This document shows positions 16,294-31,322 of a stretch of DNA of 64,000 bases, in pieces (within the stretch, counting starts at the first letter, position 1; every line of letters begins with the position of its first letter). Origin of the DNA: Escherichia coli (GTDB lineage Bacteria > Pseudomonadota > Gammaproteobacteria > Enterobacterales > Enterobacteriaceae); NCBI RefSeq assembly GCF_044324875.1, contig NZ_CP172185.1. The stretch is one strand, 5' to 3'. The notes beneath the pieces are model-generated. The model did no database searches. It was not told the origin of the DNA and saw only the letters and a program-made list of their open reading frames with translations. A program made the position numbers and the translations under genes.

Positions 16294-17523
16294 TCAGGGC
16301 CAACGTTTAATGATGATGGATGTATTAATGCCGCCAAAGGCAAAGTTGTTACTCTGCAAAAACTCACAATCAACCTTGCGGGCTTCATGCATGATGTAAT
16401 CCAGCGCGCCACAGTTCGGGTCTGGTTTATTCAGGTTTAGCGTAGGCGCAAACCAACCTTCGCGCATCATTTGCAGACTCATCCAGGCTTCGAGCGCGCC
16501 ACAGGCACCAAGCGTATGACCAAAATAACTTTTCAGCGAGGAGAGCGGCACATTATCACCGTAAATGGTTGCTGTCGCCAGACTTTCTGCCATATCACCA
16601 CGATCGGTCGCCGTACCATGCGCCGAAATATAGCCGATATCACTTGCACTTAACCCGGCGATTTTTAACGATTTTTCCATACAATATTGCATGGTCTCAC
16701 GCTGAGGCTGGGTAATATGTGCCGCGTCGCAGTTAGTCGCAAAGCCGACGATTTCACCGTAAATGGTCGCGCCGCGCGCTTTGGCGTGCTCCAGTTCTTC
16801 AAGAATCAGCGTACCTGCGCCTTCACCAATCACCAGCCCGTCGCGGTTTTCATCGAACGGTGAAGGTGTGGTTTTCGGCGCATCATTGTGCTGGCTGGTG
16901 GCGAAAAGTGTATCAAATACCGCTGCTTCTGAAGGGCATAACTCTTCGGCACCACCAGCAACCATCACCGTTTGATAACCGTGGCGAATGGCTTCCCACG
17001 CATAACCGATCGCCTGGCTGCCGGAGGTACAGGCGCTGGAGGTCGGGATCACCCGCCCGCGCAGGCCGAAAAACAGACCGGTATTAACGGCGGTGGTGTG
17101 CGGCATCATCTGTACATAGGTGGTGCCGGTGATGTTATTGGTGTGCTTTTCCGTCAGCATGGTGGCAAATTCGCTCACCGGACCGGTACTGCCGGTCGAT
17201 GAACCGTACGCAATGCCCGTTTCGCCGCTGGTTAATATCGGATCGCCAATCAATCCTGCCTGCTCTAACGCCAGCTCGCTGGCACGGGTCGACATTTGCG
17301 ACACGCGGCCCATCGCACGGATACGCTTGCGGGTGTAGTGCTCCGGTAGCGTGAAATCATCAACAGGCGCGCCAAGCAGGGTGTGCAGACCATCGTAGAC
17401 CTGCCACTCCGGCATTTTGCGCACTGCATTCTCATACGCCAGCAGACGCGCGGAAACGTCCTGCCAGTTTTCACCAAAGGCAGTCACGCCGCCCATTCCT
17501 GTAATCACTACGCGACGTGTCAT
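16294..17523 (-). CDS. Beta-ketoacyl-ACP synthase (FabB/FabF-like; ApeR-like by gene order)
   Basis: 409-aa thiolase-fold ketosynthase with active-site Cys (TSSACTSGS) and C-terminal His residues. Confidence 0.8.
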   Translation of the reverse strand: MTRRVVITGMGGVTAFGENWQDVSARLLAYENAVRKMPEWQVYDGLHTLLGAPVDDFTLPEHYTRKRIRAMGRVSQMSTRASELALEQAGLIGDPILTSGETGIAYGSSTGSTGPVSEFATMLTEKHTNNITGTTYVQMMPHTTAVNTGLFFGLRGRVIPTSSACTSGSQAIGYAWEAIRHGYQTVMVAGGAEELCPSEAAVFDTLFATSQHNDAPKTTPSPFDENRDGLVIGEGAGTLILEELEHAKARGATIYGEIVGFATNCDAAHITQPQRETMQYCMEKSLKIAGLSASDIGYISAHGTATDRGDMAESLATATIYGDNVPLSSLKSYFGHTLGACGALEAWMSLQMMREGWFAPTLNLNKPDPNCGALDYIMHEARKVDCEFLQSNNFAFGGINTSIIIKRWP

Positions 17524-18251
17524 AACATCCCTCCGTTGATGGAAATAACCTGGCGGGTGACGTAACCCGCAATATCAGACATTAAATAGCTGGCAAGCCC
17601 GGCAACTTCTTCCGCCTGGCCCATGCGTTTCATGGGGATCATCGACATTGCCTCTTTCAGGGCGCTCTCTTCCATTTCGATCATCCCGGTATCAATAAGC
17701 CCCGGCGCGATGCAGTTGACGGTGATTTTGCGCTTCGCGAGTTCGATAGCCAGTGCTTTTGTTGCGCCGATAATTCCGGCTTTGGCAGCGCTGTAGTTCA
17801 CCTGTCCGCGATTGCCCATCACGCCGGAAACCGAGGACAGCGTGATGATGCGTCCACCCTGGCGTGTGCCGATCATCGGCATAATGCACGGCTGAATAAC
17901 GTTGTAGAAACTGTCGAGATTGGTGTGGATCACCGCATCCCAGTCGTCATCGCTTAAAGCCGGAAAAGCGGCATCGCGGGCGATCCCGGCGTTACTAACC
18001 ACGCCGTACCAGGCACCGTTTTGCGCGATTTCGTGCTCCAGCACTTCCCGACACTGTTCGCGGTTTGCGACGTCGAAACTGAGCAAACGCCCGTTACCCC
18101 CGTTGGCGACAATGGCATTTAGCGTTTCCTGAGCGCCTGTGGCGTCACGGTGATAGTGAACGCCAATATTAAAGCCGTCTGCCGCCAGTTGGCAGGCGAT
18201 GGCGCGACCAATGCCTTTGCTGGCACCAGTAACCAGAACTGAACGACTCAT
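17520..18251 (-). CDS. 3-oxoacyl-ACP reductase, SDR family (FabG-like; ApeQ-like)
   Basis: N-terminal TGASKGIGRAIA Rossmann motif and YSAAK catalytic motif. Confidence 0.85.
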   Translation of the reverse strand: MSRSVLVTGASKGIGRAIACQLAADGFNIGVHYHRDATGAQETLNAIVANGGNGRLLSFDVANREQCREVLEHEIAQNGAWYGVVSNAGIARDAAFPALSDDDWDAVIHTNLDSFYNVIQPCIMPMIGTRQGGRIITLSSVSGVMGNRGQVNYSAAKAGIIGATKALAIELAKRKITVNCIAPGLIDTGMIEMEESALKEAMSMIPMKRMGQAEEVAGLASYLMSDIAGYVTRQVISINGGML

Positions 18252-18715
18252 CAGGACGCTCCTTGTTGAAACAGGGTGGTAAGTTCTTCCGCGGTCGGCT
18301 GGAAGGTGTTAATGCGGCCCGTTGCCGTGCCGTTGTTGATGCTGCACTCAAAACTGCCGAAGCGATCGTCTTGCATCAGGAGTTTGACGGTAATGGTCAG
18401 CGTCTGGCCTGCGGGCAGAATGCCAGCGGCGCAAAGCAATTCACGTGCGCCCAGTACCATCCCTAACTCAATACTGTTTTTGCCCTGCTGGTGGCGATGC
18501 CAGCCAGACCAGACGCCGACGGTTTGCGCCATCAATTCAAGGGCAAACCAGCCAGGGAGATTGCCGTCCGGGTCGAGAAACGGTGCCAGTACGCCACTGG
18601 GCGAGACCGTTACACGGCACACCGCGCTGTCATCGCTGACGCTCACCACTTCTTCCAGCAGTAACATGGGCGCGTCGTGGGGCAGATAAGCGCCGGGGGA
18701 TAAATAGTGGCTCAC
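18251..18715 (-). CDS. Hotdog-fold beta-hydroxyacyl-ACP dehydratase (FabA/FabZ-like; ApeP-like)
   Basis: 154-aa hotdog-fold protein between the KR and KS genes; 1-bp overlap with the reductase gene. Confidence 0.7.
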   Translation of the reverse strand: MSHYLSPGAYLPHDAPMLLLEEVVSVSDDSAVCRVTVSPSGVLAPFLDPDGNLPGWFALELMAQTVGVWSGWHRHQQGKNSIELGMVLGARELLCAAGILPAGQTLTITVKLLMQDDRFGSFECSINNGTATGRINTFQPTAEELTTLFQQGAS

Positions 18716-19890
18716 GAAACCCTCCCGAGCAGAATGCTGGCGTTATTGCCGCCAAAGGCGAAGGAATTGGACAGGATCACCGGACGTGCCAGCGGCTGTG
18801 GTTGTTCGATAATGCCGCACGGTGGCAGCGTGGGATCGCGCGGCGACAGGCTGAAGTCCTGAGCGGGCAGCGGTAAATCACGCTCTAAGATCAACATACT
18901 GATTGCCGCTTCGGTAATGCCCGCTGCGCCCAGCGTGTGTCCGGTCAAATGTTTGGTGGAGCTGCACGGTACGCGTTCGCCAAACAGGGCGTTTACCAGC
19001 ATCGATTCAATCTGGTCGTTGAGTTGTGTGGCGGTGCCGTGCAGGTTGATATAGCCCACCTCATCCGGCGTAAGCTGCGCATCAGCCAGCGCCTGGTTAA
19101 TGGCGCGAATTGCGCCTTCGCCCTGTGGATGCGGGGCCGAAATATGATAAGCGTCGCTCGATTCACCGACGCCCAGCAAGGCGATGGGCTGCGGTTCGCG
19201 GGTCAACAGCATCAGCCCCGCACCTTCGCCAATGGTGATGCCCGCGCGGTCACGACCAAACGGCTGACATAAGGTTGGCGAGAGCGATTCGAGGCTGTGA
19301 AAACCGTTAATCGGCATTCGGCTCAGGGTGTCTGCACCACCCACAATGGCGGCATCGACCAGCCCCGCCTCGATAAGCCTGCGCCCGCTGATCATCGCTC
19401 TGGCACTGGAGGAGCAGGCGGTTGAAAGGGTATAAGCTGGGCCGTCGAGCGCCAGCCAGTGGCTGAGAAAACGCGACGGATCGCCGAGCTCTTGTTGTGC
19501 ATAGTGCCACGTGGTGCTCGGCTGCCCGTGGGTGCGCAGGTTAACGTGCGTGTCGCCTTCATGCAGGCCGGAGGTGCTGGTGCCAAGCACAATCGCGATG
19601 CGCTCGCGGCCATATTTCGCAATAGCGTCATCAACCTGCGGCTGGATCTGCGCCAGCGCCGCCAGCAGGATCTGATTGTTGCGCGAGCGGTGCGCAGCGA
19701 ATTTTTCCGGGATAACCGGAAGCTCGCCATCCACGCCAGCCAGGACCGCCTGCGGATGCCCCTGCAACCAGCCTGCGCGCGGGCGCATGCCGGGAGCGAC
19801 ACCGCGAGTCAGGTTGGCTGCGATATCGTCAAGGTTATTTCCCAGGGCGTTGATCATGCCGACGGCGGAAATGTAAATCATATCAGTCAC
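18712..19890 (-). CDS. Beta-ketoacyl-ACP synthase (ApeO-like elongating ketosynthase)
   Basis: 392-aa ketosynthase with active-site Cys (STACSSS) and conserved His motifs. Confidence 0.8.
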   Translation of the reverse strand: MTDMIYISAVGMINALGNNLDDIAANLTRGVAPGMRPRAGWLQGHPQAVLAGVDGELPVIPEKFAAHRSRNNQILLAALAQIQPQVDDAIAKYGRERIAIVLGTSTSGLHEGDTHVNLRTHGQPSTTWHYAQQELGDPSRFLSHWLALDGPAYTLSTACSSSARAMISGRRLIEAGLVDAAIVGGADTLSRMPINGFHSLESLSPTLCQPFGRDRAGITIGEGAGLMLLTREPQPIALLGVGESSDAYHISAPHPQGEGAIRAINQALADAQLTPDEVGYINLHGTATQLNDQIESMLVNALFGERVPCSSTKHLTGHTLGAAGITEAAISMLILERDLPLPAQDFSLSPRDPTLPPCGIIEQPQPLARPVILSNSFAFGGNNASILLGRVS

Positions 19891-20467
19891 CTAAATATTG
19901 AATGGTGATGTGGTATTTAAAGACATGCTGTTCAATGCTGATTGGCACGCGTTTTCCCTGGCGATTCAGATAGGTGATTTCCGTGACCAGTTTGCCGCTG
20001 GCGTTACGCAGTTCGCGTTTGTCACCGTTGTCGCGAAGCGTCCATCCAGCGGGGAGTTGCGGTTGCCAGGCGCTAATCGGCCAGTGGCTAAGCATCACGT
20101 CAGCCAGCACCTGACTTGCGGGCGGCAACTGTGGGACGACGATGGATTGCTCGGCGCGTAGCCCTTGCGCATCGTAGGTCACCAGAAACAGACGAATGCC
20201 GACCGACGACAGCCCGGCAAGGGTGATTTTCTGGTCGTCGGCGTTAAGCATCACTAGCAGAGACTGGGTTTTGCCGTTGAAGCTGCCGCTCAATAGTTGC
20301 TGGGAATTAACGGCGGGCGAAATCCCTGGTGCCGGCAGCGTGATGCGCGTGCCAGGTTGCAGCCACGCCTGTGGGCGACCTTCCTGTTCCGGTTGCGAGT
20401 GGCTACAGCCGGTGAGGATAAGCGTAGCGGTCAGGGCGAACGCTCGCCAGAATGTGGGTTTGATCAT
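19883..20467 (-). CDS. Lipoprotein of the cluster export module (ApeN-like)
   Basis: Signal peptide with lipobox LTGC near the N-terminus; overlaps both flanking genes. Confidence 0.65.
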   Translation of the reverse strand: MIKPTFWRAFALTATLILTGCSHSQPEQEGRPQAWLQPGTRITLPAPGISPAVNSQQLLSGSFNGKTQSLLVMLNADDQKITLAGLSSVGIRLFLVTYDAQGLRAEQSIVVPQLPPASQVLADVMLSHWPISAWQPQLPAGWTLRDNGDKRELRNASGKLVTEITYLNRQGKRVPISIEQHVFKYHITIQYLGD

Positions 20468-22782
20468 TTTTTTGTTCTCTTTTTATCGGGCATAGCCAGC
20501 GGCGAAAGCAGGAAGGCGGTGAAAATACCGCTCACCAACACAATGCCAAAACTGCTGATGGCCTGGGTGGCGCTGAATACCAGCATTCCCAGCGCCAGCA
20601 AGGTGGTGAGCATTGCCAGCGTGATCGCCAGTAGGGAAGTTAACGGTGTACCGCGCGGATTACTGAAAAACAGCGTGTAATTGATGCCGATGCCAAGCAC
20701 CAGCACCAGCGCCAGTAGCGAAAAGAGATTCACCGCCTGCCCGCTCATCGCCAGCACTGCCAGACCGCAGCCCAGCGAAAGTACCGAAGGCACCAGGCTG
20801 ATAAGCCCTTTGCGCCAGCCGAGGCGGGCCACTGCGCCGCAGGCAATCACCGCCAGCGCCACCAGCAACAAACCGGTTAAGACGTAGCGGTAAAGTGCGA
20901 ACAACTCATCAAAGGTGCTTTTGCGATCAACCCAGGCAATGCCGCCAGGGTAATCGCTGGCGATTTCCTGCAACAACGCGCTACTTTTAACCCCTTCAAC
21001 CGGCACCAGTACGCCGCTTTCGCCGTTTTTCAGCGTCAGCCACAGCAGACGCCAGCCTTCACTGGCGGGGCTTGCCAGCCATTCATCGACCTTCACTGGC
21101 ATGGCGTTGAGATCCGGATTCACTGCCGCCAGCCCGGCATTTTGCAGTGCTTTTGTTACTGTCGGGGCAGCCGTTTTCAGCAGATGTAAATCTTCCTCCT
21201 GCCGCGCCAGGGAGTTCAGCGGAATGGTGCGGTAGTTGCTGATAAGCCCCTCTTTTTTCGCATTCTCCAGCGAGGCGGTAAATTTCTCCAGCCGCCGCAA
21301 TGTTTGCTGTGGAGAGTCGCCGTAAACTACAAACCATTTTTGATCGACGCTTTGTCCGGTCAGGGCGGTAATGGCTTTCTCTTGGGCCAGAATATGCTGC
21401 GGTAGCGCCTGTAACTGCGAGATATCGTCGTCGACGCGCAGCATTGACATCCCCGCCAGCGAAAACAGCGCCAGCGCGACGGGCAGACCCAGCGACAGTT
21501 TTTTATTACGCCGCCACGCAGCCAGCCAGCGCAGCATCAGCGCCATCGCCGGAACCGGACGCACCGGCAGGCCACGGCACAGCCACGGATGCCAGAACAG
21601 GACGGTCAGACAGGAGGCGCTCAACCCGACGGCGGCAAAAATCGCCATCTGGCGAATGCCGGGGAAGGGGGCGAGCATCATAATCAGATACGCCGCCACG
21701 GTGGTGAGCAGCGCCAGCAGCAGGGCATTGCGCACTTTCGCCAGGCTTTGCCACGGCGAAACGTCATTGCCGTGCACCATCCGCTCGGTGAGGTAATAGA
21801 GCGTGTAGTCAGCGGAAATGCCGATAACGCTCATGCTCATCACCAGCGTCATCAGGTGTAATTCGCCGAAAATCAACAAGGTGGCGACCGTTCCCGCCAG
21901 CGCGCCGATGCCGATGGAAATCACGCAAAGCAGCAATGGGCGTAAAGAGCGGAACACCGCCACAATCAGTAATATCACCCCCAGCAGCGTTGCCACGCCC
22001 AGGTTGGAGATATCCTGCTTCGCCTGTTGGCTGGCGTAATCGCTGTAAAACACCGTGCCGCGCGAGAGCAACTGCGCCTGCGGGTAACGCGTTTTCAGAT
22101 CCTTTTCCAGCGTATTCAGGGTCGTGATGAGCTGGTGGGTTTGCTGCATATCAAACGACGATCCCGCCAGTTCGCCGTGCAGCAGATACCAGTAGTTGCC
22201 CTGGGGATCCTGCGTCACCAGCCAGCCGTCCATCAGCCGCAAACGCTGGCCGTTTTTCGCCATCGCCAGCTGCGAGCCACGCATTAACATCAGCGGATCG
22301 TTTTGCAGCTCCTTACCGCTTACCCCGGAGAACGCAGAATAAAGCTGGGAGAGGATCCACTGCGCCTGCGCTTCGCCGCCGTTTTGCAGGCGCGCGCGGG
22401 TGTCGGGGTCAACCAGGCCGTTGCGGTGCTGCCAGAAAAACGCTCCCCACGCCTGCTGGCTGGCGGCATCCATTGGCCCTTTAACGTCGCCGAGCGCAGC
22501 GGATTTTTGCAGCAGCGTCAGCCACTCCTGAGCCACCCTGGGATTAGCCTCTTTACCGGGGCTGACCAGCCACACCAGTTGGCGGTCCAGACGCTGCATA
22601 AAGCCGTCATTCAGCGCTGGAGGAATATCGCCCATCGCCTGTTTGGGTAACATAGCCAGCACGCTACTGTTCAGTCGTGATTGCGGCAACAGGATCAGCA
22701 ACGCCGCCGCCATGACCAGGCAGACGATCCCCCATAACAGCGCCGGGCGTTTACTGGGCGGCAAAACGTTGGCGTTCGTCAT
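20464..22782 (-). CDS. MMPL/RND-superfamily exporter (ApeM-like)
   Basis: 772-aa protein with two blocks of transmembrane helices separated by large soluble domains, typical of MMPL-type lipid exporters. Confidence 0.8.
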   Translation of the reverse strand: MTNANVLPPSKRPALLWGIVCLVMAAALLILLPQSRLNSSVLAMLPKQAMGDIPPALNDGFMQRLDRQLVWLVSPGKEANPRVAQEWLTLLQKSAALGDVKGPMDAASQQAWGAFFWQHRNGLVDPDTRARLQNGGEAQAQWILSQLYSAFSGVSGKELQNDPLMLMRGSQLAMAKNGQRLRLMDGWLVTQDPQGNYWYLLHGELAGSSFDMQQTHQLITTLNTLEKDLKTRYPQAQLLSRGTVFYSDYASQQAKQDISNLGVATLLGVILLIVAVFRSLRPLLLCVISIGIGALAGTVATLLIFGELHLMTLVMSMSVIGISADYTLYYLTERMVHGNDVSPWQSLAKVRNALLLALLTTVAAYLIMMLAPFPGIRQMAIFAAVGLSASCLTVLFWHPWLCRGLPVRPVPAMALMLRWLAAWRRNKKLSLGLPVALALFSLAGMSMLRVDDDISQLQALPQHILAQEKAITALTGQSVDQKWFVVYGDSPQQTLRRLEKFTASLENAKKEGLISNYRTIPLNSLARQEEDLHLLKTAAPTVTKALQNAGLAAVNPDLNAMPVKVDEWLASPASEGWRLLWLTLKNGESGVLVPVEGVKSSALLQEIASDYPGGIAWVDRKSTFDELFALYRYVLTGLLLVALAVIACGAVARLGWRKGLISLVPSVLSLGCGLAVLAMSGQAVNLFSLLALVLVLGIGINYTLFFSNPRGTPLTSLLAITLAMLTTLLALGMLVFSATQAISSFGIVLVSGIFTAFLLSPLAMPDKKRTKK

Positions 22783-23356
22783 CGGTCAGTTGCGCTGGCG
22801 TCAGTTGATGTTGGGTAAGAGCGATATCGGTGCGATCGCCCTGTTTATCATTAAGCTGAATGCTCTCCAGATAGGTTTGCCCGGCGAGATCGATGGTGTT
22901 GAAAATTTTATCCAGCGGCGTGGTGGTCGGCGTCAGGCGCAGTGTCCAGCGGCCTTCGCCTTTGTCAGCAAATTCGACGCGGAAATTTTGTTCCAGCACT
23001 TTGCGATCGGCCTGGAACAGCGCGCGCAGCAGGTGGTTAAACTGGAACATCTGCGGGTTATTTTCTGCCGTGATGATTTGCGGCGGCTGACCGTTGATCA
23101 CCTGCACCATGCGTTTATCGTCCAGCAATAGTTGCATGGGAAATGGTGAGGTTTGATCCCACAACAGCCCCTGGTCGCGGGCGATCAACATCTGGCCCTG
23201 AGATCGTAGCGGCTGCGGCAGATCTTTAATCGTCCGGGTTTGATCGAAATGAGCGCGGATCACCGGCTGTTCGGTAAAGCGTTGCTGAAGATCGTCCAGG
23301 TTCAGGGCGCTCACAAACGGGCTAATCAGCAGCGCCAGCAGTGGTAAAAATTTCAT
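22751..23356 (-). CDS. LolA-like outer-membrane lipoprotein carrier family protein (ApeL-like)
   Basis: 201-aa secreted protein with a cleavable signal peptide; position next to the MMPL exporter. Confidence 0.65.
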   Translation of the reverse strand: MKFLPLLALLISPFVSALNLDDLQQRFTEQPVIRAHFDQTRTIKDLPQPLRSQGQMLIARDQGLLWDQTSPFPMQLLLDDKRMVQVINGQPPQIITAENNPQMFQFNHLLRALFQADRKVLEQNFRVEFADKGEGRWTLRLTPTTTPLDKIFNTIDLAGQTYLESIQLNDKQGDRTDIALTQHQLTPAQLTDDERQRFAAQ

Positions 23357-23775
23357 GGTTTGACTCCCATGCGTTCAAACAAAATATCGGGGCTGACAAA
23401 GCACAGTTCGCGGCTTTGCTCGTCGACCGCGACCTGAATGGTGTATCCGGTGGTGGCGCGTTTGCCCGTTTCGGCATCGAAAATCTGATAGCCAATCCGC
23501 AGACGGTTTTCGAACTCTTCGATATGTGCACGCACGCGGATGCGTTGCTCAAAGGTGAGGGCGTGGCGATATTTCACCCGCGCATCGACCACTGGCCACA
23601 AATAACCGGACTCTTTCATCTGCCGATAGCCGTAATTGAACTGGTTGAGCAGCGCCTCGCGGGCCACTTCAAAGTAGCGAAAATAGTTACCGTGCCAGGC
23701 CACGCCCATCATATCGACGTCGTGAAAGGGAATGGTCAGCTCGACTTCAGCGGTAAATCGGGGATCGTTAAGCAC
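23353..23775 (-). CDS. Hotdog-fold acyl-CoA/acyl-ACP thioesterase (4HBT-like; ApeK-like)
   Basis: 140-aa protein resembling YbgC/4-hydroxybenzoyl-CoA thioesterase family members. Confidence 0.7.
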   Translation of the reverse strand: MLNDPRFTAEVELTIPFHDVDMMGVAWHGNYFRYFEVAREALLNQFNYGYRQMKESGYLWPVVDARVKYRHALTFEQRIRVRAHIEEFENRLRIGYQIFDAETGKRATTGYTIQVAVDEQSRELCFVSPDILFERMGVKP

Positions 23776-23778
23776 CCT

Positions 23779-25455
23779 TTACTCCTTGTCCTGGACTTCC
23801 GGCAGTTGCCAGAAATCGAAAAAATTAAACCAGTCGAGGGGCGACTGGAGCGCGTAATGTTCCAGACGCGCGGCGTAATGATCGATAGCGTTTTGCAGCG
23901 CCTGCTGGCGTTCGCCACGCGGCAACAGCAGCGGGTCGGCAAAGGTTTCGCAGTGAATATGCAGCTTGCCGTGCTGGCGCAGGGCGAAAATCAGATTCAC
24001 CGGGCAGCGCAAAATAGACGCAAGAATAAACGGCCCCTGTGGGAAAGGCGCAGGCTGGCCCATAAACGGACTCCAGCAGACGCGCCAGTCGCCGCCGCGT
24101 TGCGGGTTGACGGCGATGCGGTCACCGACAATCGCCACCCATTCGCCGTTATCCAGCTTCTCTTTCAGCAGGATGGCGGTTTCCGGGCCGATATCTGTTA
24201 CCGGGAGCAGGTTGATGCCTGCCTGCGGGGCCATCTCCTGCATTATCTGTTTAAAGCGTTGGGCGTTTTCGCTAAACACCAGCGCGTTAATGGTTTTGTA
24301 GCCCTGAATTTTTGCCAGCGCCCGGCACACTTCCACATCGCCAAGATGCGAGGCCAGCAGCAATTTGCCGCGCGGATCGCTGACGTTAAGTGCCGCTTCT
24401 GCGCCTGGTGCAAACAGCACATCACGCCCGAGTTGCAGCTCGCCGCGCCAGCTGGCGATTTTGTCGAGCATGGCGTTGCCGAAACGTAGAAAATGCTGAT
24501 AGCTGTTGAGTTTTGCTGCCTGTGGTTGTTGTTGGCGCACACGGGCGAGCCAGTCTTGCGACGCTTTACGTGCACGAGCAGCGGTGAGCCAGTAGACGCC
24601 CACCACCGGGTAAAGCAGCGCGGTAAACGCAGTTCTTCCCAGCAGACGCCAGACCAGCAGCATCAGGCGCATTCCCCATAACCCTTTCACTTCGCTCTGC
24701 CGCGCCCAGTGGCTGGAAGAGTGGCGCATCAGCAGTGAAGGAATACGCGGCAACATGCCGAAAAACAGACGTGTGTGCATCAGCGAGATGCGGACGTTAT
24801 CTTTCAGGGCATCAAAATGCGAAAGCCCGTCCAGCGGATAGGTGACGCGGGTCGGCACGAAATAACTGGTATTTCCCTGCCAGTAGAGGCGCACCATCAC
24901 TTCGGTGTCAAAATCCATCCGCTTGCCGATGGTAGCGTATTTTGCCAGTTGCAGCGTTGGCGCAACCGGATAAACGCGAAAGCCGCACATACTGTCTTTC
25001 AGTTGCAGGGAGAGCGTTTCGATCCATACCCACACGTGGGTGACCCAGCGCCCGTACAGCCGTGAGCGGGGGATGGAGTCATCGTAAATCGGCTGGCCGG
25101 AGATCAGCGCCGCAGGCTGCTGTTCAGCGAGTGCCAGCAGTTTAGGGATGTCTTCAATCGCGTGCTGACCGTCAGCATCCACCTGCACCGCATGGCTGAA
25201 GCCCGCGTCTGCCGCTGCCTGTAAGCCACGCATCACTGCCGCGCCTTTGCCTGCGTTTTCTGCCAGGCGAATTAAGGTCACGCCAGGCTGTTCGGCAACC
25301 AGATTATCCAGTTGCTGTTGCGTGGCGGCATCGCTGCCGTCATCCACTACAATACAGGGCAGATTAAATGGCTTAAGACGCGCCAGCACGCCCGGCATCA
25401 TCGCGCCGTGGTTGTAGCAGGGGATCAACACGCAGGGAGAAAAGTTTACCGACAT
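23779..25455 (-). CDS. Bifunctional glycosyltransferase family 2 / lipid A-type acyltransferase fusion (ApeJ-like)
   Basis: 558 aa: N-terminal GT-A fold features (VDDGSDAAT, DADGQH) followed by a C-terminal domain resembling lauroyl/myristoyl (HtrB/LpxL-type) acyltransferases. Confidence 0.7.
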   Translation of the reverse strand: MSVNFSPCVLIPCYNHGAMMPGVLARLKPFNLPCIVVDDGSDAATQQQLDNLVAEQPGVTLIRLAENAGKGAAVMRGLQAAADAGFSHAVQVDADGQHAIEDIPKLLALAEQQPAALISGQPIYDDSIPRSRLYGRWVTHVWVWIETLSLQLKDSMCGFRVYPVAPTLQLAKYATIGKRMDFDTEVMVRLYWQGNTSYFVPTRVTYPLDGLSHFDALKDNVRISLMHTRLFFGMLPRIPSLLMRHSSSHWARQSEVKGLWGMRLMLLVWRLLGRTAFTALLYPVVGVYWLTAARARKASQDWLARVRQQQPQAAKLNSYQHFLRFGNAMLDKIASWRGELQLGRDVLFAPGAEAALNVSDPRGKLLLASHLGDVEVCRALAKIQGYKTINALVFSENAQRFKQIMQEMAPQAGINLLPVTDIGPETAILLKEKLDNGEWVAIVGDRIAVNPQRGGDWRVCWSPFMGQPAPFPQGPFILASILRCPVNLIFALRQHGKLHIHCETFADPLLLPRGERQQALQNAIDHYAARLEHYALQSPLDWFNFFDFWQLPEVQDKE

Positions 25456-25829
25456 AGGCGGATCTTCCCGCTACTGGCGGTGTGGCGGGCGTCACCGTCG
25501 TGACGCTGATAGCTAAAGCTCAGAATCTGGCGTTCTTCCTGCCAGTTAAGCGTGAGCGTGACGCGGTTGTCCGGCAGCAACGGGGACTGGAATTTGATGT
25601 TCTGAATAGAGTGAAAACGCCAGCCAGGCGCGAGCAGAGTGAGCGCGTAGCTCATCGCCCAGTCGATTTGTGCAACTCCTGGGAGTAACGGCTGCACGGC
25701 AAAATGGCCGCGAAACCAGAACAGATCTGCCCTGAGATGCAAAACAATCTCAAGGTGATTCGCTTGTGCCTGATGGCGCTCGATTTCATGGGGCTTCATG
25801 AAATAACTCCTGTAATTGCGCATAGACAC
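25446..25829 (-). CDS. Hotdog-fold dehydratase (ApeI-like)
   Basis: 127-aa hotdog-like protein overlapping both neighbours. Confidence 0.6.
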   Translation of the reverse strand: MSMRNYRSYFMKPHEIERHQAQANHLEIVLHLRADLFWFRGHFAVQPLLPGVAQIDWAMSYALTLLAPGWRFHSIQNIKFQSPLLPDNRVTLTLNWQEERQILSFSYQRHDGDARHTASSGKIRLCR

Positions 25830-27147
25830 GCTTGTTCATACTGTTTACTGGCATTTCATCAATAACGCGCCAGTAACGCGGAATAGCAACTGGCTCCAGC
25901 GTCGGGCGCAGTAATCGCCGCCAGGTCATTTCCTGGCTATGCCCGCCGCCGTTCTGCCATTGCAGGCGAGCTTCGTCATCCAGCACCAGCAAAACGCCGA
26001 TGCTCTGACGCCCGCCGCGCGTAACGGGAACTGCCGCCGCCTCGCGAATGCCGTCCAGCGCCAGCAGACGTTGTTCTACTTCCTGCAGAGAAATACGTTT
26101 TTCTTCAATCTTAACGATGCGCCCACGACGCCCCATCAGATGGAACTGACCGTCCTGGCTAAACTGCAAGAGATCATCGAGTAACAGGCCGTTATCTTCC
26201 GCTATCAGCGGTGAAAAGAGACGAAATGCTTCACCTTCGGCCTGGAAGTGCATACCTGGAAAGGGCAGCCAGCGGCGTTGCTCTTGTTCGCGGTAACGCC
26301 AGGCAATGACGCCGGTTTCCGTGCTGCCGTAGATTTCATCAGGCCAGACGCGCAGCCAGCTCGCGGTGTGTTTTACGTCCTGCCACGGCAGCTCACCGCC
26401 AGCAGAGAGAAGCACCTGAACGGGCGGCGGAGAAAGCTGGGTATCCAGCCGTTTCAAAAATGCCGGGCTGCTGATGAAGATATAGCGATGCTGGTGACTC
26501 AATGCGGCAAACTGTTCGACATACCAGAGCATGGCGGCGTGCAGCGGTAATCCCAGCGCCATTGGCAGGAAAACGCGAAAAGTCAGGCCGTACAGATGCT
26601 GCGGCAATACGGAACCGACGACACGACATCCGGCAAGACGTGCGCCTAATCGTTCAGCCAGCAGTTCTGCTTCACGGTCCAGCAAATGAACAGGTTTAAT
26701 TACCCGCTTTGGCTGCCCCGTAGAACCGGAGGTAAATAGCTCGATATAAGCGTCTGGCGCTATAGCGGCAAAGGTGAATGATTGTGTCGCGACTTGTGGG
26801 GAACTTGCTACCAACAGCAATGAACCTTGCCAGTTAAGATCGCTGTCGCTAAGTACACCATCGAACAGTTCACGTTGTTCATTAAGCTGGATGACACGGT
26901 TATGCCCCGGAAGCACCGGCGTTTTTCCGGCGTGTAGCGTGGCAAGCAGGGCAACGATAAACAAATAACTGTTCTCAAAGCACAGCGCCCAGCGTTCACC
27001 CGGCTGTTGCTGCAAGCGGCAGATAAGTTGCGCGACATCGTGACGCAAATCGCCCAGTGTCCACGAGCTTTCGTCCAGCCACGCAATGGGCGTGTCATCA
27101 GGGCGTGGCGCAGTCAGCCAGCGTGCAAGCGGTAAGGTCTGCTTCAT
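25786..27147 (-). CDS. AMP-dependent synthetase/ligase, acyl-ACP synthetase-like (ApeH-like, likely aryl starter activation)
   Basis: Adenylate-forming enzyme motifs (TSGSTGQPK AMP-binding motif); start set at the ATG at 27147, immediately after the upstream gene stop, rather than the ORF-track start at 27186. Confidence 0.75.
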   Translation of the reverse strand: MKQTLPLARWLTAPRPDDTPIAWLDESSWTLGDLRHDVAQLICRLQQQPGERWALCFENSYLFIVALLATLHAGKTPVLPGHNRVIQLNEQRELFDGVLSDSDLNWQGSLLLVASSPQVATQSFTFAAIAPDAYIELFTSGSTGQPKRVIKPVHLLDREAELLAERLGARLAGCRVVGSVLPQHLYGLTFRVFLPMALGLPLHAAMLWYVEQFAALSHQHRYIFISSPAFLKRLDTQLSPPPVQVLLSAGGELPWQDVKHTASWLRVWPDEIYGSTETGVIAWRYREQEQRRWLPFPGMHFQAEGEAFRLFSPLIAEDNGLLLDDLLQFSQDGQFHLMGRRGRIVKIEEKRISLQEVEQRLLALDGIREAAAVPVTRGGRQSIGVLLVLDDEARLQWQNGGGHSQEMTWRRLLRPTLEPVAIPRYWRVIDEMPVNSMNKRVYAQLQELFHEAP

Positions 27148-27725
27148 GAGCGATCTCTTTTTATCACCTGACGGCGCACCAGCCATTCACCTGCCATTAA
27201 CGTTCCCATCAAAAAATAAGCAATCATGCCGTTCCAGGCGGTCCATAACGACATATCGCCATAAAGCGCGGTAAAGAGGGCAATTCCGCCGTTAATGATG
27301 AAAAAGCCGCACCAGATTTGCGTGACACGGCGGGTATAGCGCACGCCCTTTTCCGGGAGGTCTGGCTCCTGCAAACGTGCCAGCCGCTCAACTATCGGCA
27401 TTGTCGACCACAGCGAACCGCCAAAAACCGCCAGCATGATCGCGTTAACCACTACCGGGTAAAACAGCAGTAGCTGGTGCGTTTTCAACAGAAAGCTGGC
27501 GACACACAATGCGATGCCCACGACAGCGACGATTTGTGTGACGGCTTGTAGCGGCCCCGCCCGGCGACGGGTCTGGCGCAGGCGCAACAATAGCAGCAAC
27601 GCTATTAGCGGCAACAACCAGTGCAGGCCGTTATGCGCCAGGCCAAACCAAATCACAAACGGCCAGGCGAGCAGCAATAATCCAGTCAGCAGCTTAATCA
27701 TCGGTAGCGAGCGAATGCCCGACAT
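27144..27725 (-). CDS. Integral membrane protein of the cluster (ApeG-like)
   Basis: 193-aa hydrophobic protein with several predicted transmembrane helices. Confidence 0.6.
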   Translation of the reverse strand: MSGIRSLPMIKLLTGLLLLAWPFVIWFGLAHNGLHWLLPLIALLLLLRLRQTRRRAGPLQAVTQIVAVVGIALCVASFLLKTHQLLLFYPVVVNAIMLAVFGGSLWSTMPIVERLARLQEPDLPEKGVRYTRRVTQIWCGFFIINGGIALFTALYGDMSLWTAWNGMIAYFLMGTLMAGEWLVRRQVIKRDRS

Positions 27726-27729
27726 CAGA

Positions 27730-27981
27730 TCAGGCTTCTTGTAGCAGGCGTTCTACAGCCTCTACGACATCCTGAACTGTGCGCACTGCTTTAAACTCTT
27801 CCGGCTTGATTTTCTTACCGGTTTTCTTTTGCAGGTGCACAATCATGTCAACGGCGTCGATGCTGTCCAGTTCCAGATCTTCGTACAGGCGCGCTTCAGG
27901 TTTGATGTCCTGCGGATCGATTTCAAACAGCTTAACCAGCAGGGCTGAGACTTCCTGATAGACGGTTTGTTGTTCTGTCAT
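27730..27981 (-). CDS. Acyl carrier protein (second of a tandem pair; ApeF-like)
   Basis: 83-aa protein with the phosphopantetheine attachment motif LELDSIDAVD. Confidence 0.85.
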   Translation of the reverse strand: MTEQQTVYQEVSALLVKLFEIDPQDIKPEARLYEDLELDSIDAVDMIVHLQKKTGKKIKPEEFKAVRTVQDVVEAVERLLQEA

Positions 27982-27992
27982 GATGGCTTTCC

Positions 27993-28250
27993 TCAGGCGC
28001 GTTGCGCAGCAATGAAAGAGGCCAGAGTGGCGACGGAGAAAAAGTGCTGACGCATCTCTTCGCTTTCGGCTGAGAGCACCACGCCGTACTCATTTTTTAC
28101 TGCCAGTCCCAGTTCCAGGGCATCGATGGAATCCAGTCCTAAACCGTCGCCGAACAGCGGCGCATCGGTCTCGATATCATCAGGAGTCAACTCGTCCAGA
28201 TTGAGGGTGCTGATGATGAGGTTTTTAATTTCCAGATAAAGCGCTTGCAT
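27993..28250 (-). CDS. Acyl carrier protein (first of a tandem pair; ApeE-like)
   Basis: 85-aa protein with motif LGLDSIDALEL around the conserved Ser. Confidence 0.85.
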   Translation of the reverse strand: MQALYLEIKNLIISTLNLDELTPDDIETDAPLFGDGLGLDSIDALELGLAVKNEYGVVLSAESEEMRQHFFSVATLASFIAAQRA

Positions 28251-29064
28251 TATTTATTCCTGAGAGAGGTAAACAACCTTGTTGTAATAGAAGCAAAAGA
28301 TGCCGGTTTAACTGCCTTGCTGCCAGCGCCGGTTCTTGTGAAGTTGCATCGTAAAATTTATTGATTTCAACCCGACCATGGACTTCAACCGTAAAAAACG
28401 GCCGGTCAGGTGGAACGTCATACCATTTACTTTGTTTATCCAGCAGATGCTCGCTACAGCCGATCGTCACGATGCGTAAATCGCTGGCACAGCGCACGGC
28501 AATATTCGCCGCCCCGCGCTGCAGCGTCATTTTTTCACCGGGCTTCGTTCGCGTGCCTTCGGGGAAAATCAGGATAGTGTCACCCTGTGCCAGTCGCTGT
28601 TGGCAGCGGGGTAACAGGGTTTCAGCTTCGCTGTTGATTAAATAATCTACCGCCCGCACGACGCCGCCAAGAAAAGGATTTTTTAACAGCGCGCTTTTCA
28701 CCAGGCAGTCAGTTTCTGGCATGACTGACGCCAGCAGCACGTAATCGATCAGCGTGGGATGATTGGCTACGACGAGGCAACCGCGTTCCTGACGTAAAAT
28801 TTCAGCGCCATCAATACGATAATCCAGCACGCCAAGCCCTTTCGCGACAGTTAAAAACAGGCGAAAACTGGCGGCAATGCTGCGACGCGCCAAACGACGG
28901 CGGCGGGAAGTATCCCACACCAAAACTAACAATATGTTAAACCACACGACAGAAAGCAGCAGGCCGCCGAGACCAAACAGGGCAAAACATAACCCGGTCA
29001 TGACCAGTCGCCAGGTCCACTCCAGACGTGACATCAGCTTACTCATCTGCGGCTCCAGCGCCAT
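28225..29064 (-). CDS. Lysophospholipid acyltransferase family protein (PlsC/LPLAT-like; ApeD-like)
   Basis: N-terminal transmembrane segment and acyltransferase motifs (NHPTLIDY, FPEGTR). Confidence 0.75.
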   Translation of the reverse strand: MALEPQMSKLMSRLEWTWRLVMTGLCFALFGLGGLLLSVVWFNILLVLVWDTSRRRRLARRSIAASFRLFLTVAKGLGVLDYRIDGAEILRQERGCLVVANHPTLIDYVLLASVMPETDCLVKSALLKNPFLGGVVRAVDYLINSEAETLLPRCQQRLAQGDTILIFPEGTRTKPGEKMTLQRGAANIAVRCASDLRIVTIGCSEHLLDKQSKWYDVPPDRPFFTVEVHGRVEINKFYDATSQEPALAARQLNRHLLLLLQQGCLPLSGINNASALSGN

Positions 29065-29789
29065 TGCACGCGCTCGCCAGGCAGTGAAAATGCGTCTGCA
29101 TTTTGTAAATAATGCTGTAAAAACAACATGCTTTGCGGCAGTGATGTTTCATTGCCCGCAATGGCTGACTGCGTTTCACATTGCCAGTCATCGCCAGATT
29201 CAATCACCAGCGCGACGGCGTACGGCCAGGTCGGCATTTCTGATGGCAGTTGTGGGTGATAAAACTCGGGCAGAAAACCGTCAAAATCGACCATCAACAC
29301 GCGCTGGTATCCCGCTTGTAACAGGCTAAGCACTTCACACAAACCTTGCTGGAAAGTGTCGCGACCAGCAGAAAGCGATGACGAAACTATCGGCTGTTTG
29401 GCCGCAATGGTCAGGTTACCCACGGAAGAGTTGTGTACGGAGAGCGCGAAGTCGGTCGGAGAAAGCGCCTGTTCGGTTGCCAGTGCATGAACAATGCGGT
29501 AATTGCGCTCCAGTTCGCCATGACGACTGGTATACAAAACGGCGTCTGGCTGATGGCGGCGTAGCATTGCCAGACCGCATTCAACAGCCAGTTTGCTGCC
29601 TGAACTAAGGCGGCGGGCGGTCATCATTGGCAGTTCACTTAATTTTGCCAACGGCGCGGCAGGGTCAATCGCCCACGGCTGGCGCGACCATGCTTGCCAT
29701 TGCTGCGCTTCGCTAAGTCCAGGCGCCAGTGCCTGCCAGTCGGTAATATTTAATGTAAATTTCATCAACGCGCGCCCGCGGTAAACCAA
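29043..29789 (-). CDS. Ketosynthase-related protein lacking an obvious active-site Cys (chain-length-factor-like; ApeC-like)
   Basis: 248-aa protein with thiolase-fold similarity, shorter than a canonical KS; pairs with the upstream KS in this cluster type. Confidence 0.6.
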   Translation of the reverse strand: MVYRGRALMKFTLNITDWQALAPGLSEAQQWQAWSRQPWAIDPAAPLAKLSELPMMTARRLSSGSKLAVECGLAMLRRHQPDAVLYTSRHGELERNYRIVHALATEQALSPTDFALSVHNSSVGNLTIAAKQPIVSSSLSAGRDTFQQGLCEVLSLLQAGYQRVLMVDFDGFLPEFYHPQLPSEMPTWPYAVALVIESGDDWQCETQSAIAGNETSLPQSMLFLQHYLQNADAFSLPGERVQWRWSRR

Positions 29790-29805
29790 AATTATTAAGT
29801 GACGA

Positions 29806-30873
29806 TTATTTCTTTTGGCATATCAAAAGTGTATGCCCAACGCCTAAATTATCGTGGCGCTCTGCTACCTGGAATCCTGCTTTATTCAGATAGTCGTAAA
29901 ATTTCTCTGCACTATAGAAACGGCTGTTACCGTTTGCCATGCAGGTAAAATAAAGTGAGGACGCGTTCAGGCTAAATGATGCTGCTTCAAACCGCTGCGC
30001 ATCCCAGAACAACTCCATGATGCAAACTTTTGCGCCAGGCTTCATTACGCTGGCGATTTTGCTGAGTATGCTAATTATTTGTTCGGGTGAAAAACAGTCT
30101 AAAAATTGGCTCATCCACCAGATATCAGCCTCGCCCGGTAATGGGGCATCGCTTAGCATATCCACCGCATGGAAATCTATGCGATCAGAAAAACCTGCAT
30201 TCGCGATATTTTCTTTCGCTAGTACGATTTGTTGTGGCAGATCTAATAACGTCACGGCGATGTTTTCATTGTATTTGCAGCAACGCAAAGCCCACTTACC
30301 CGTATTGCCGCCTACATCGTACAATGTTGTGGGGTTGTTGGCGAATACATAAGGCAGTGCGGCGTTAAATGCGCCATCTGAATAGTAATGATCAAACGCA
30401 AACCAGCTTTCACGAGCGGCGTCTGGTAATTGTGAAAGTGCCGGATATATCGTCGACCAGTCGCCAAATACTTTTAACCCGGACGGTTTTCCTTCATTGA
30501 GTGAATCGGCGAGGAAGAAGAGCCCCTGGTAACAGACATCCTGGGTGAAATCCATATTCACGCGAGTCATAGTGTCATGCAGGAGGTAATGACCGATTTT
30601 CGCCAGGTAATACATTCCCTCTTTACAGGTAATAATTCGCCCGCTTAAGCCCATATCTAACAGAACGCTGGCCGCATATTCGTTGATATGGCTATGTTCG
30701 GTGATATCAGCCAGCGTTGCGCCATGTTTGCCTTGCCGATCCAGATATGAAAGTACACCCGCATTACGTAGGCAGAGTGCTGTTTGAAAAAGCATAGGGG
30801 CAAAGGCAATGCGTTGAGCTTCGGTAATCGCATCCAGTGCGCTAAGAGAATCCTGTTCGTACATGTTGGGCAC
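29806..30873 (-). CDS. SAM-dependent O-methyltransferase (ApeB-like)
   Basis: 355 aa with a class I methyltransferase Rossmann motif (LYDVGGNTG). The ORF-track start is a GTG at 30873; the ATG at 30864 is an alternative. Confidence 0.75.
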   Translation of the reverse strand: MPNMYEQDSLSALDAITEAQRIAFAPMLFQTALCLRNAGVLSYLDRQGKHGATLADITEHSHINEYAASVLLDMGLSGRIITCKEGMYYLAKIGHYLLHDTMTRVNMDFTQDVCYQGLFFLADSLNEGKPSGLKVFGDWSTIYPALSQLPDAARESWFAFDHYYSDGAFNAALPYVFANNPTTLYDVGGNTGKWALRCCKYNENIAVTLLDLPQQIVLAKENIANAGFSDRIDFHAVDMLSDAPLPGEADIWWMSQFLDCFSPEQIISILSKIASVMKPGAKVCIMELFWDAQRFEAASFSLNASSLYFTCMANGNSRFYSAEKFYDYLNKAGFQVAERHDNLGVGHTLLICQKK

Positions 30874-30932
30874 AACCTGTTAAGAGGGAATTAAATTATT
30901 ATCGGACCGCAGCGGCCCGACTTTAGGAAGAA

Positions 30933-31322
30933 TTATAAATCTGCGCCCGCTGACAAATTCAGTTGAATATCTTTGTCGAGATTGCGGACCCAGCGATTGT
31001 AGTTTTTATGAATTTGTCCGCCTGACGCTTGTAGGTTCTGGCTATTTTCATAATTGATATCGTAGCTGGATGCCGTGTAGTTAATGCGAATTTCGGCTGA
31101 ATGATCGCGTGACTGTTGACGTGCTTTAATTACGCCTTGTCCGGCTTCGGACATAATCCATTTGCGTTCAACGCCAGCTTTCAGAATCGCTTTTTTCACT
31201 TGTTCCTGGGTATGACCAGCGCTGACGGTTGAGTGAACCTGATCAATTGGCGCAGTACGCGCGCAACCCGCTAAAGCACCCACAACAGCAATAGCCGCAA
31301 ACCATTTCATGTAATGTCTCAT
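30933..31322 (-). CDS. Small lipoprotein, first gene of the cluster (ApeA-position)
   Basis: 129-aa ORF with signal peptide and lipobox LAGC; AT-rich promoter-like region upstream. Confidence 0.6.
   Translation of the reverse strand: MRHYMKWFAAIAVVGALAGCARTAPIDQVHSTVSAGHTQEQVKKAILKAGVERKWIMSEAGQGVIKARQQSRDHSAEIRINYTASSYDINYENSQNLQASGGQIHKNYNRWVRNLDKDIQLNLSAGADL

Follow-up and report, generated by a model that had tools for sequence, protein, structure and literature searches.

The DNA analysed here (the window) is a 64,000-nucleotide stretch of the Escherichia coli contig NZ_CP172185.1, and its minus strand carries the aryl polyene (APE) cluster, adjoined at apeR by acpT (15705-16292). A single 558-aa open reading frame within the cluster, which the first-pass annotation had singled out from the letters alone as a fusion of two enzymes, is indeed one uninterrupted gene on the minus strand with an ATG start, and PGAP gives a CDS with identical coordinates in E. 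coli 042. This gene is apeJ, the orthologue of c1194 of E. coli CFT073, because it is flanked by apeI and apeK and because the apeJ primers match it exactly: the published qPCR primers for CFT073 apeJ (c1194) have 0 mismatches at 24272-24292 (minus strand) and 24145-24164 (plus strand), where no match is expected by chance. The apeI gene, for an ApeI-like dehydratase (25446-25799; 25446-25829 for the gene as matched with Pfam), overlaps the start of apeJ by 10 nt, and apeK, for a 4HBT thioesterase (23353-23775), begins 3 nt past the apeJ stop. Further neighbours identified with Pfam comprise KS, CLF, KR, the ApeI/ApeP dehydratases, two ACPs and an AMP-binding protein, along with the LPLAT protein ApeD, a thioesterase, a LolA-like protein, an MMPL/RND protein, a DUF3261 protein and a methyltransferase, so that the full apeA-R function set (Pfam and PGAP, with gene names from PMC8253772) surrounds apeJ. 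Of 5426 complete E. coli genomes, 823 contain the apeJ DNA at 95-100% identity, nearly always over its whole length, and the representative of the most populous E. coli cluster (P0001) is 97% identical to the ApeJ of the window. The features considered below are the following; the DXD, acceptor-loop and HX4D/E motifs were confirmed in the translation.

16294..31322, minus strand: ape cluster, apeA to apeR (Pfam scans of neighbours, PGAP, names per PMC8253772 Table 1)
23779..25455, minus strand: apeJ open reading frame, 558 aa (ORF listing with ATG start, PGAP CDS, primer matches)
24727..25455, minus strand: GT2 / GT-A glycosyltransferase domain, aa 1-243 (PF00535, PDB sequence matches, Foldseek, model)
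25171..25179, minus strand: D93-A-D95 (DXD), metal / nucleotide-sugar binding motif (invariant in 47/47 fused homologues)
24970..25005, minus strand: acceptor-loop motif QLKDSMCGFRVY, aa 151-162, D154-x3-G158-F-R160 (homologue conservation)
24688..24726, minus strand: predicted inter-domain linker, aa 244-256 (pLDDT <50 at aa 250-256; split point in other taxa)
23779..24687, minus strand: LpxL/LpxM/PatA-type acyltransferase domain (PF03279, LPLAT superfamily), aa 257-558 (homologues, profile, fold)
24331..24348, minus strand: H370-L-G-D-V-E375, putative HX4D/E catalytic motif (conservation, LpxM alignment)
24118..24123, minus strand: D445-R446, invariant pair (47/47 fused and 71/71 stand-alone sequences)

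The N-terminal half of ApeJ is unambiguously a GT2 domain, which bears out the GT-A fold proposed for it in the first-pass annotation. Pfam places PF00535 on aa 8-130 (E 5e-20; 72.5 bits, gathering cut-off 23.3), the best phmmer matches among PDB sequences are DPMS 5mlz (1.8e-6), ArnC and GtrB, and the same three enzymes, GtrB, ArnC and DPMS, are retrieved by Foldseek at about 1e-10, with the AlphaFold model exceeding a pLDDT of 90 throughout the domain. Besides the DXD motif, D39, Q97, H98 and D183 are invariant in the 47 fused homologues, and the acceptor-loop motif is nearly so (D154 in 44, G158 and R160 each in 46 of the 47); its D154-x3-G158-F-R160 pattern is, by comparison with the motifs of GtrB and DPMS, typical of polyprenyl-phosphate GT2 enzymes. 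The best NCBIfam match is the polyprenyl-phospho-GalNAc synthase PpgS (1.5e-14), under the equivalog cut-off at 54 bits vs 370, and ArnC reaches 25 bits vs 529; judged by sequence, the GT2 half is related to, yet outside, every characterised polyprenyl-phosphate glycosyltransferase equivalog. In the model, a long helix (216-243), C-terminal to the catalytic core, completes the GT2 region and is followed by a disordered linker and then by the acyltransferase domain. C-terminal transmembrane helices like those of GtrB, ArnC and DPMS were not found after the catalytic domain by hydropathy or in the model: no 19-residue window in aa 200-300 attains a hydropathy of 1.4, and the junction of the two domains likewise shows no convincing transmembrane helix by hydropathy.

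The C-terminal half is far less accessible to standard annotation. The first-pass annotation had called it HtrB/LpxL-like and had proposed a Pfam/HMM domain search as the check on both halves; that search finds the GT2 domain but leaves the acyltransferase undetected on ApeJ itself, with no Pfam match to PF03279 even at E<=1. Similarly, phmmer with the whole of ApeJ against PDB sequences yields GT2 relatives only and leaves the C-terminal half unmatched, the NCBIfam models of LpxL, LpxM and LpxP do not match ApeJ, and the PatA model PRK07920 is found below threshold at aa 411-549 (E 0.003; 16.6 bits vs 209). The reading of ApeJ as a single-domain protein can nevertheless be dismissed, and the one-family Pfam outcome amounts to a false refutation, because homologues, family profile and fold reveal the second domain. 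Indeed, PF03279 is matched by 64 of the 71 stand-alone homologues (best 2.9e-19) and by 39 of the 47 fused ones (best 4.1e-15), and the profile of the C-terminal family retrieves LpxM 5kn7 from the PDB at E 4.8e-7, with the LpxM catalytic motif aligned, and PatA at 0.03. The AlphaFold model (mean pLDDT 89.7), in which the domain begins with hydrophobic or amphipathic helices at aa 256-336, gives LpxM 5knk as the first Foldseek match in the PDB (3.3e-11), followed at ranks 2-6 by PatA (TM-score 0.61-0.69, normalised to the target). By the evidence of related sequences and of the model, then, the C-terminal half belongs, as a divergent member, among the LpxL/LpxM/PatA-type acyltransferases, as the first-pass annotation had held in outline.

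DARPins (designed ankyrin-repeat proteins), which rank between LpxM and PatA in the C-terminal profile search, were dismissed as compositional matches, because their 'GHLEIVEVLL'-type repeats resemble the SHLGNLEVCRAL segment, the matches contain zero significant stretches and the fold search lends them no support.

The predicted catalytic residues are strongly conserved. Among the 47 fused homologues, H370 and G372 are invariant and position 375 is occupied by E in 42 sequences and by D in the other 5, and in the family profile H370-LGDV-E375 aligns with HFGTWE of Acinetobacter baumannii LpxM; the motif in this family is H-x-G-N-x-E, ApeJ being one of the sequences (5/47) with D where N is usual. 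D445, of the invariant D445-R446 pair, is aligned by the family profile to the D in the 'LPDH' segment of LpxM and may be the second acidic partner of the catalytic His, equivalent to PatA E200 and VexE D532. The correspondence to PatA E200 is kept at candidate level because a profile restricted to the final ~175 residues, aimed at that residue, failed to reach PatA and recovered no acyltransferase, only chance matches at E>0.7.

The two halves of ApeJ also occur as separate proteins. The 150 top-ranking representatives of the C-terminal domain include 76 stand-alone proteins, 290-365 aa long, and 51 complete fusions, and the alignment of the stand-alone acyltransferases to ApeJ starts at about aa 245-248, so that the split point of the separate genes coincides with the linker predicted to be disordered in the ApeJ model. 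All 3 split loci examined lie in an APE-type cluster and have a GT2 gene (243-262 aa) directly upstream of the acyltransferase gene (315-326 aa), with overlapping stop and start codons; the pairs are located 3' of apeH/apeI homologues and before a LolA-like gene, with a thioesterase gene in between at 2 of the 3 loci. The split genes are not assembly frameshifts, a reading dismissed because the same arrangement, its stop and start codons overlapping cleanly, turns up in three clusters unrelated to one another and in genomes of named organisms (Kushneria). The pattern of fusion and fission is that of independent domains that work together. Some of the clusters with split pairs also encode a halogenase or an aromatic ammonia-lyase. 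Some stand-alone C-terminal homologues are named 'LpxL/LpxP family acyltransferase' by NCBI. For the separate glycosyltransferase and acyltransferase genes in xanthomonadin clusters, our literature search found no biochemistry beyond the papers cited here.

Both the two-domain nature and the role of ApeJ have been published previously, so that the fusion noted in the first-pass annotation is correct but not new, and its proposal that one bifunctional enzyme links the polyene to a glycolipid agrees with the published model (PMC8253772; 10.1101/2020.12.19.423268). ApeJ of E. coli CFT073 is tabulated as 'glycosyltransferase / acyltransferase', and deletion of apeJ in E. coli leads to late intermediates and partial pigmentation (PMC8253772). 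In 2021, the lipid anchor of E. coli was described as not yet known (PMC8253772); the structure of the aryl polyene lipid (APEL) has been solved in Xenorhabdus, whose cluster matches that of E. coli in gene content and is, in the words of the authors, 'highly similar' to it (10.1101/2020.12.19.423268). The APEL of Xenorhabdus doucetiae is APE-6-O-GalNAc-1-phosphate-diacylglycerol, with the polyene esterified to O-6, a phosphodiester joining the GalNAc to the diacylglycerol, and the GalNAc-1-phosphate reported as the alpha anomer (J 2.8 Hz), and the apeJ deletion in this bacterium accumulates acyl-cFA-glycerol-3-phosphate, a diacyl-glycerol-phosphate precursor (10.1101/2020.12.19.423268). The same authors propose that ApeJ glycosylates a phosphatidate-type lipid with GalNAc and then acylates O-6 (10.1101/2020.12.19.423268). 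A biochemical assay of either ApeJ domain was not found in the full-text literature searched.

Taken with these reports, our observations make it likely that ApeJ is a bifunctional enzyme for the last attachment steps of APEL biosynthesis. The GT-A (GT2) domain would use a nucleotide sugar, probably UDP-GalNAc, as the donor and place the sugar on the phosphate of a phosphatidate-type lipid, which would itself be made by ApeD, the other acyltransferase of the cluster. The C-terminal domain, through H370/E375 and D445-R446, would then accept the finished polyene from its thioester linkage to the carrier protein ApeE and attach it through an ester bond to the 6-OH of the sugar, by analogy with PatA, which acts on mannose in PIMs, and VexE, which acts on HexNAc. 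The hydrophobic helices at aa 256-336 probably position the two active sites on the cytoplasmic side of the inner membrane, and the product would be exported by ApeM, ApeL and ApeN. What the present analysis contributes to this model is the presence of two domains with their catalytic motifs and fold, along with the genomic setting of apeJ and its pattern of fusion and fission; the literature supplies the structure of the product and the phenotypes of the mutants. We infer the identities of donor and acceptor in E. coli, the order of the reactions and the membrane topology, the last of these because hydropathy gives no classical transmembrane segment.

The closest GT2 relatives of ApeJ invert UDP-alpha-sugars to beta products, so that, given the alpha product of the pathway, direct transfer to the phosphate entails an unexplained stereochemical mismatch. 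As a tentative suggestion, which we regard as rather unlikely, either the GT2 half has been re-targeted to phosphatidate, possibly with net retention, or the acyltransferase acts first, on UDP-GalNAc. Net retention, if true, would be mechanistically unusual for the polyprenyl-phosphate glycosyltransferase clade, and either a retargeted or retaining GT2 domain or an acylation-first order would call for revision of the published reaction scheme. The latter order, in which the polyene is attached to O-6 of UDP-GalNAc and the GT2 domain then moves the acylated sugar to the lipid phosphate, seems to us unlikely when taken by itself. It finds a precedent in VexE, the nearest enzyme of this fold with a characterised function in sugar C-6 acylation, which modifies UDP-GlcNAc before transfer (PMC9597891), and the accumulation of phosphatidate fits either order given that deletion of the whole apeJ gene removes both domains. 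Against it, the top-ranking structures, LpxM and PatA, use membrane-embedded glycolipid acceptors, the predicted hydrophobic helices at the N-terminus of the acyltransferase domain suggest an interfacial acceptor, and the group that solved the lipid structure places glycosylation first in its proposal (10.1101/2020.12.19.423268).

That the C-terminal domain of ApeJ in E. coli is a true LpxL/HtrB-type enzyme, attaching the polyene to lipid A or to a lipid A-like glucosamine lipid, is very improbable: although the domain falls within the lipid A secondary acyltransferase family, and lipid A or a derivative was weighed as the anchor by Johnston et al. (PMC8253772), no LpxL, LpxM or LpxP equivalog of NCBIfam is matched, the Xenorhabdus cluster of equal gene content makes a lipid without a lipid A part (10.1101/2020.12.19.423268), and the invariably co-located GT2 partner would be left without a role. 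ApeJ works like the PF03279 family but is not HtrB/LpxL proper, the secondary lauroyl transferase with Kdo2-lipid IVA as its acceptor, because it lacks a match to these NCBIfam models and because the published product contains no lipid A; the 'HtrB/LpxL-like' label of the first-pass annotation therefore holds at the superfamily level only, and the acceptor, by analogy with PatA and VexE, is most likely a sugar 6-OH rather than lipid A. Finally, it is hardly credible that the C-terminal half has degenerated and, without catalysis of its own, merely anchors or scaffolds a single-function GT2 enzyme at the membrane, as might be gathered from Pfam seeing GT2 only and from the PGAP name ('glycosyltransferase family 2 protein'), given that H370 and D445-R446 are invariant and E/D375 is conserved across homologues of 35-50% identity, that the domain occurs as a conserved stand-alone protein in many clusters, and that the model is confident and predicted to be LpxM/PatA-like.

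The ApeJ finding adds no new biology. The proposed step is that at which a soluble, carrier-bound pigment becomes a membrane lipid, in a pathway whose aryl polyenes aid protection from oxidative stress and biofilm formation in uropathogenic E. coli (PMC8253772). Standard annotation (Pfam, PGAP) detects the GT2 half alone in the enterobacterial proteins, whereas profile and fold searches can demonstrate the acyltransferase half of ApeJ. Furthermore, domain-specific mutants can now be designed from a defined fusion point and from catalytic residues assigned by conservation and alignment.

The ApeJ considered here does not differ in kind from that of E. coli CFT073 (c1194) or X. doucetiae: the gene, its position in the cluster and the glycosyltransferase/acyltransferase architecture are the same, and only the E. 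coli strain is another one. The split GT2 and LpxL-like pairs of APE-type clusters have homologous halves in the order and neighbourhood of ApeJ but consist of two polypeptides. Among characterised glycosyltransferases, DPMS, GtrB, ArnC and PpgS (Rv3631) are the top sequence and fold matches of aa 1-243 and share the DXD motif; these enzymes transfer a sugar onto a lipid-linked phosphate, as is proposed for ApeJ, and the donor of PpgS is also GalNAc. By contrast, ApeJ is without the transmembrane hairpin that GtrB and ArnC have at the C-terminus, its proposed acceptor is diacylglycerol phosphate instead of polyprenyl phosphate, and the product reported for its pathway is alpha-linked whereas these four enzymes invert.

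The predicted fold of the C-terminal half is common to PatA and to LpxM/LpxL of PF03279 (Foldseek 3e-11 to 1e-10), although identity to LpxM and PatA is just 15-17% and ApeJ lies under Pfam detection. Acylation of a sugar 6-OH on a glycophospholipid, as proposed for ApeJ, would be PatA-like. Unlike PatA, LpxM and LpxL, the ApeJ acyltransferase is fused to a glycosyltransferase; its proposed donor is aryl-polyene-ACP, where those enzymes use saturated fatty acyl-ACP or acyl-CoA, and its proposed acceptor is not lipid A. VexE likewise contains an LPLAT-fold domain, with PatA and LpxM as its nearest structures, and is an ACP-dependent enzyme that acylates C-6 of HexNAc (PMC9597891). The likeness between ApeJ and VexE is one of description, not of direct sequence comparison, and VexE departs from ApeJ in carrying an N-terminal TPR extension where ApeJ has the GT2 domain, in acting on a nucleotide sugar, and in having Tyr at position six of the catalytic motif, where ApeJ keeps Glu.

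The 558-codon ORF at 23779-25455 (minus strand) starts with ATG and occupies, in the ORF listing of the window, exactly the coordinates claimed in the first-pass annotation. It is not a chance ORF. The NCBI pipeline annotates it with identical coordinates in E. coli 042, its DNA matches 823 of 5426 complete E. coli genomes at 95-100% identity, each time on the chromosome and, with few exceptions, over the full length, and public data hold more than 4000 homologous proteins. It shares 10 nt with the end of the upstream gene, and 3 nt separate its stop from the start of the gene that follows, spacing typical of a translationally coupled operon. Pfam scans and PGAP annotation show that the same-strand neighbours make up a complete aryl polyene (APE) cluster, bounded by acpT/nikA on one side and yhhT on the other, in the order apeA-apeR tabulated for E. 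coli CFT073 (PMC8253772). That table places apeJ (c1194), described as "glycosyltransferase / acyltransferase", between apeI and apeK (PMC8253772), and both published apeJ (c1194) qPCR primers (PMC12871727) match inside the ORF with 0 mismatches. Gene order, position between apeI and apeK, and exact primer matches thus identify the ORF as apeJ.

Features of the region
15705-16292, minus: acpT, phosphopantetheinyl transferase
16294-31322, minus: APE cluster, with a methyltransferase, chain-length factor, PlsC-type acyltransferase, two acyl carrier proteins, AMP-binding acyl-ACP synthetase, ApeI-like dehydratase, apeJ, 4HBT thioesterase, LolA-like protein, MMPL/RND transporter, DUF3261 protein, two ketosynthases, ApeP-like dehydratase and ketoreductase
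27144-27725, minus: apeG, 193 aa, annotated hypothetical
31702-32007 and 32701-33609, minus: halves of yhhT (AI-2E family transporter)
32013-32782: IS1, with InsA (32069-32344, plus) and InsB (32263-32766, plus)
60354-62757, minus: low-GC block (0.37-0.41) between ggt and yhhY, with a 392-aa protein (61579-62757, minus) and two small ORFs of 164 and 94 aa

AcpT is an "orphan" in K-12, where the ape cluster is absent; here, acpT directly adjoins apeR, which suggests that AcpT activates both ape carrier proteins. ApeG has no Pfam match at E<=0.001, and its COG4648 "pyrophosphatase" role in export was assigned without evidence (PMC8253772, 10.1101/2020.12.19.423268). The IS1 element splits yhhT about 700 bp past the apeA end of the cluster; yhhT of E. 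coli 042 carries no such insertion. Also absent from E. coli 042 is the low-GC block, which looks like a toxin/immunity-type module; the N-terminus of its 392-aa protein is Hcp-like by eye, and the ggt-yhhY position in K-12 is presumably that of yhhZ.

The N-terminal half of ApeJ is a GT-A enzyme of the kind that glycosylates a lipid-bound phosphate, because residues 8-130 match Pfam PF00535 (GT2; E 5e-20), the best NCBIfam match is the polyprenyl-phospho-GalNAc synthase PpgS (1.5e-14, far under the equivalog threshold), and dolichol-phosphate mannose synthase (DPMS), ArnC and GtrB are both the solved structures closest by sequence and the top fold matches. Conserved residues point the same way: D39, D93-x-D95, Q97, H98 and D183 are invariant in 47 fused homologues (38-85% identity), with D154, G158 and R160 nearly so.

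The Pfam check proposed for both domains found GT2 and missed the acyltransferase: residues 240-558 have no Pfam match even at E<=1, and NCBIfam gives a weak PatA-model match alone (E 0.003). Taken literally, this is the single-family result that the first-pass annotation regarded as a refutation, yet four independent lines show that the acyltransferase domain is real. First, a full HMMER search of 1.84 billion representatives, with residues 234-558 as query, returned 3033 relatives (547 at E<=1e-30), the best 150 of which include 76 stand-alone proteins (290-365 aa) and 51 full GT2 fusions. Second, PF03279 matches 64 of the 71 sequences in an alignment of the query half with 70 stand-alone relatives (best E 2.9e-19) and 39 of the 47 fused relatives (best E 4.1e-15); the enterobacterial branch alone scores too low to be detected. 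Third, the profile of stand-alone relatives matches the A. baumannii LpxM structure (E 4.8e-7), with PatA next (E 0.03), and aligns the family motif S-H-L-G-N-x-E (here H370-LGDV-E375) on the catalytic H-F-G-T-W-E of LpxM. Fourth, an AlphaFold model from the 47-sequence alignment (mean pLDDT 89.7) has LpxM (3.3e-11) and PatA (TM-score 0.69 on target) as top PDB matches overall, followed by GtrB, ArnC and DPMS, which match the other half. The claim that one ORF joins a GT-A N-terminus to a lipid A-type acyltransferase is therefore upheld. A C-terminal half with no catalytic function is very unlikely, because the catalytic residues do not vary; H370, G372, D445, R446 and G474 are invariant among homologues. 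At 23779-24687 (minus), PF03279 and PGAP leave an annotation gap in the E. coli, Klebsiella and Citrobacter proteins, all named "glycosyltransferase family 2 protein" alone, except for one Klebsiella oxytoca entry, "putative LPLAT superfamily acyltransferase".

Among named examples, the fused form is found in Vibrio fluvialis, Paraferrimonas and an Opitutaceae bacterium. Three unrelated APE-type clusters (one collinear with E. coli, one with a halogenase gene, one with an aromatic ammonia-lyase gene) carry a separate GT2 gene of 243-262 aa, followed immediately by a stand-alone acyltransferase gene whose start codon overlaps the GT2 stop codon; in Kushneria, which has the split form, NCBI names the protein an LpxL/LpxP family acyltransferase. 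Alignment of the stand-alone proteins to ApeJ begins at about residues 245-248, where the model has its sole disordered stretch (pLDDT <50 at residues 250-256). Fusion extends further in a metagenomic protein of 1185 aa (P0127) that joins ApeH (AMP-binding), ApeI dehydratase, GT2 and acyltransferase, and halogenase-gene clusters (loci L004/L005) encode a 573-aa ApeH-ApeI fusion (5498-7219) beside the split pair. GT2 and acyltransferase are independent modules, yet they always occur together, and this favours successive steps on a single substrate.

An inverting GT2 enzyme using a UDP-alpha-sugar is expected to form a beta linkage, and the nearest relatives of the GT2 half (24727-25455, minus) are inverting enzymes; some GT-A families with PF00535 are, however, retaining. 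Hence the published alpha-GalNAc-1-phosphate (anomeric coupling 2.8 Hz; 10.1101/2020.12.19.423268) is a puzzle but no contradiction. In that lipid, solved from Xenorhabdus doucetiae, an ester bond joins the polyene to O-6 of GalNAc, whose anomeric carbon is phosphodiester-linked to a diacylglycerol with a second, conjugated fatty acid (10.1101/2020.12.19.423268). Because deletion of apeJ led to accumulation of diacyl-glycerol-3-phosphate, the authors proposed a first step in which ApeJ adds GalNAc and a second in which it acylates this sugar with polyene bound to ApeE (10.1101/2020.12.19.423268). In E. coli, the apeJ deletion retains partial pigmentation and accumulates late intermediates (PMC8253772). 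The reverse order, with acylation of the nucleotide sugar preceding GT2 transfer, is possible, since VexE acylates its nucleotide sugar before transfer (PMC9597891) and a whole-gene deletion does not indicate which domain acts first. Lipid A, suggested earlier as the polyene acceptor in E. coli (PMC8253772), is an unlikely one in view of the conserved GT2 partner and the solved lipid structure.

The dual annotation and proposed role of ApeJ are already in print (PMC8253772, 10.1101/2020.12.19.423268, PMC12871727). What remains of value is that public annotation names ApeJ as GT2 alone and that our literature search found no biochemical study of either domain. Product structure and mutant phenotypes come from the literature, to which we add the domains, motifs, fold, context and modularity of ApeJ; we infer the donor and acceptor in E. 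coli, the reaction order and the topology. GtrB and ArnC carry a C-terminal transmembrane hairpin, whereas, by hydropathy and model, the GT2 half of ApeJ has none. A GT2 half of the lipid-phosphate-glycosylating kind would make the sugar-1-phosphate-lipid linkage, and an LPLAT half of the PatA/VexE kind would acylate the sugar 6-OH (cf. PMC9597891). These assignments fit well with the published ApeJ model, as does the earlier suggestion of one bifunctional enzyme attaching the polyene to a glycolipid, and the X. doucetiae cluster is closely related to the APE cluster of E. coli.
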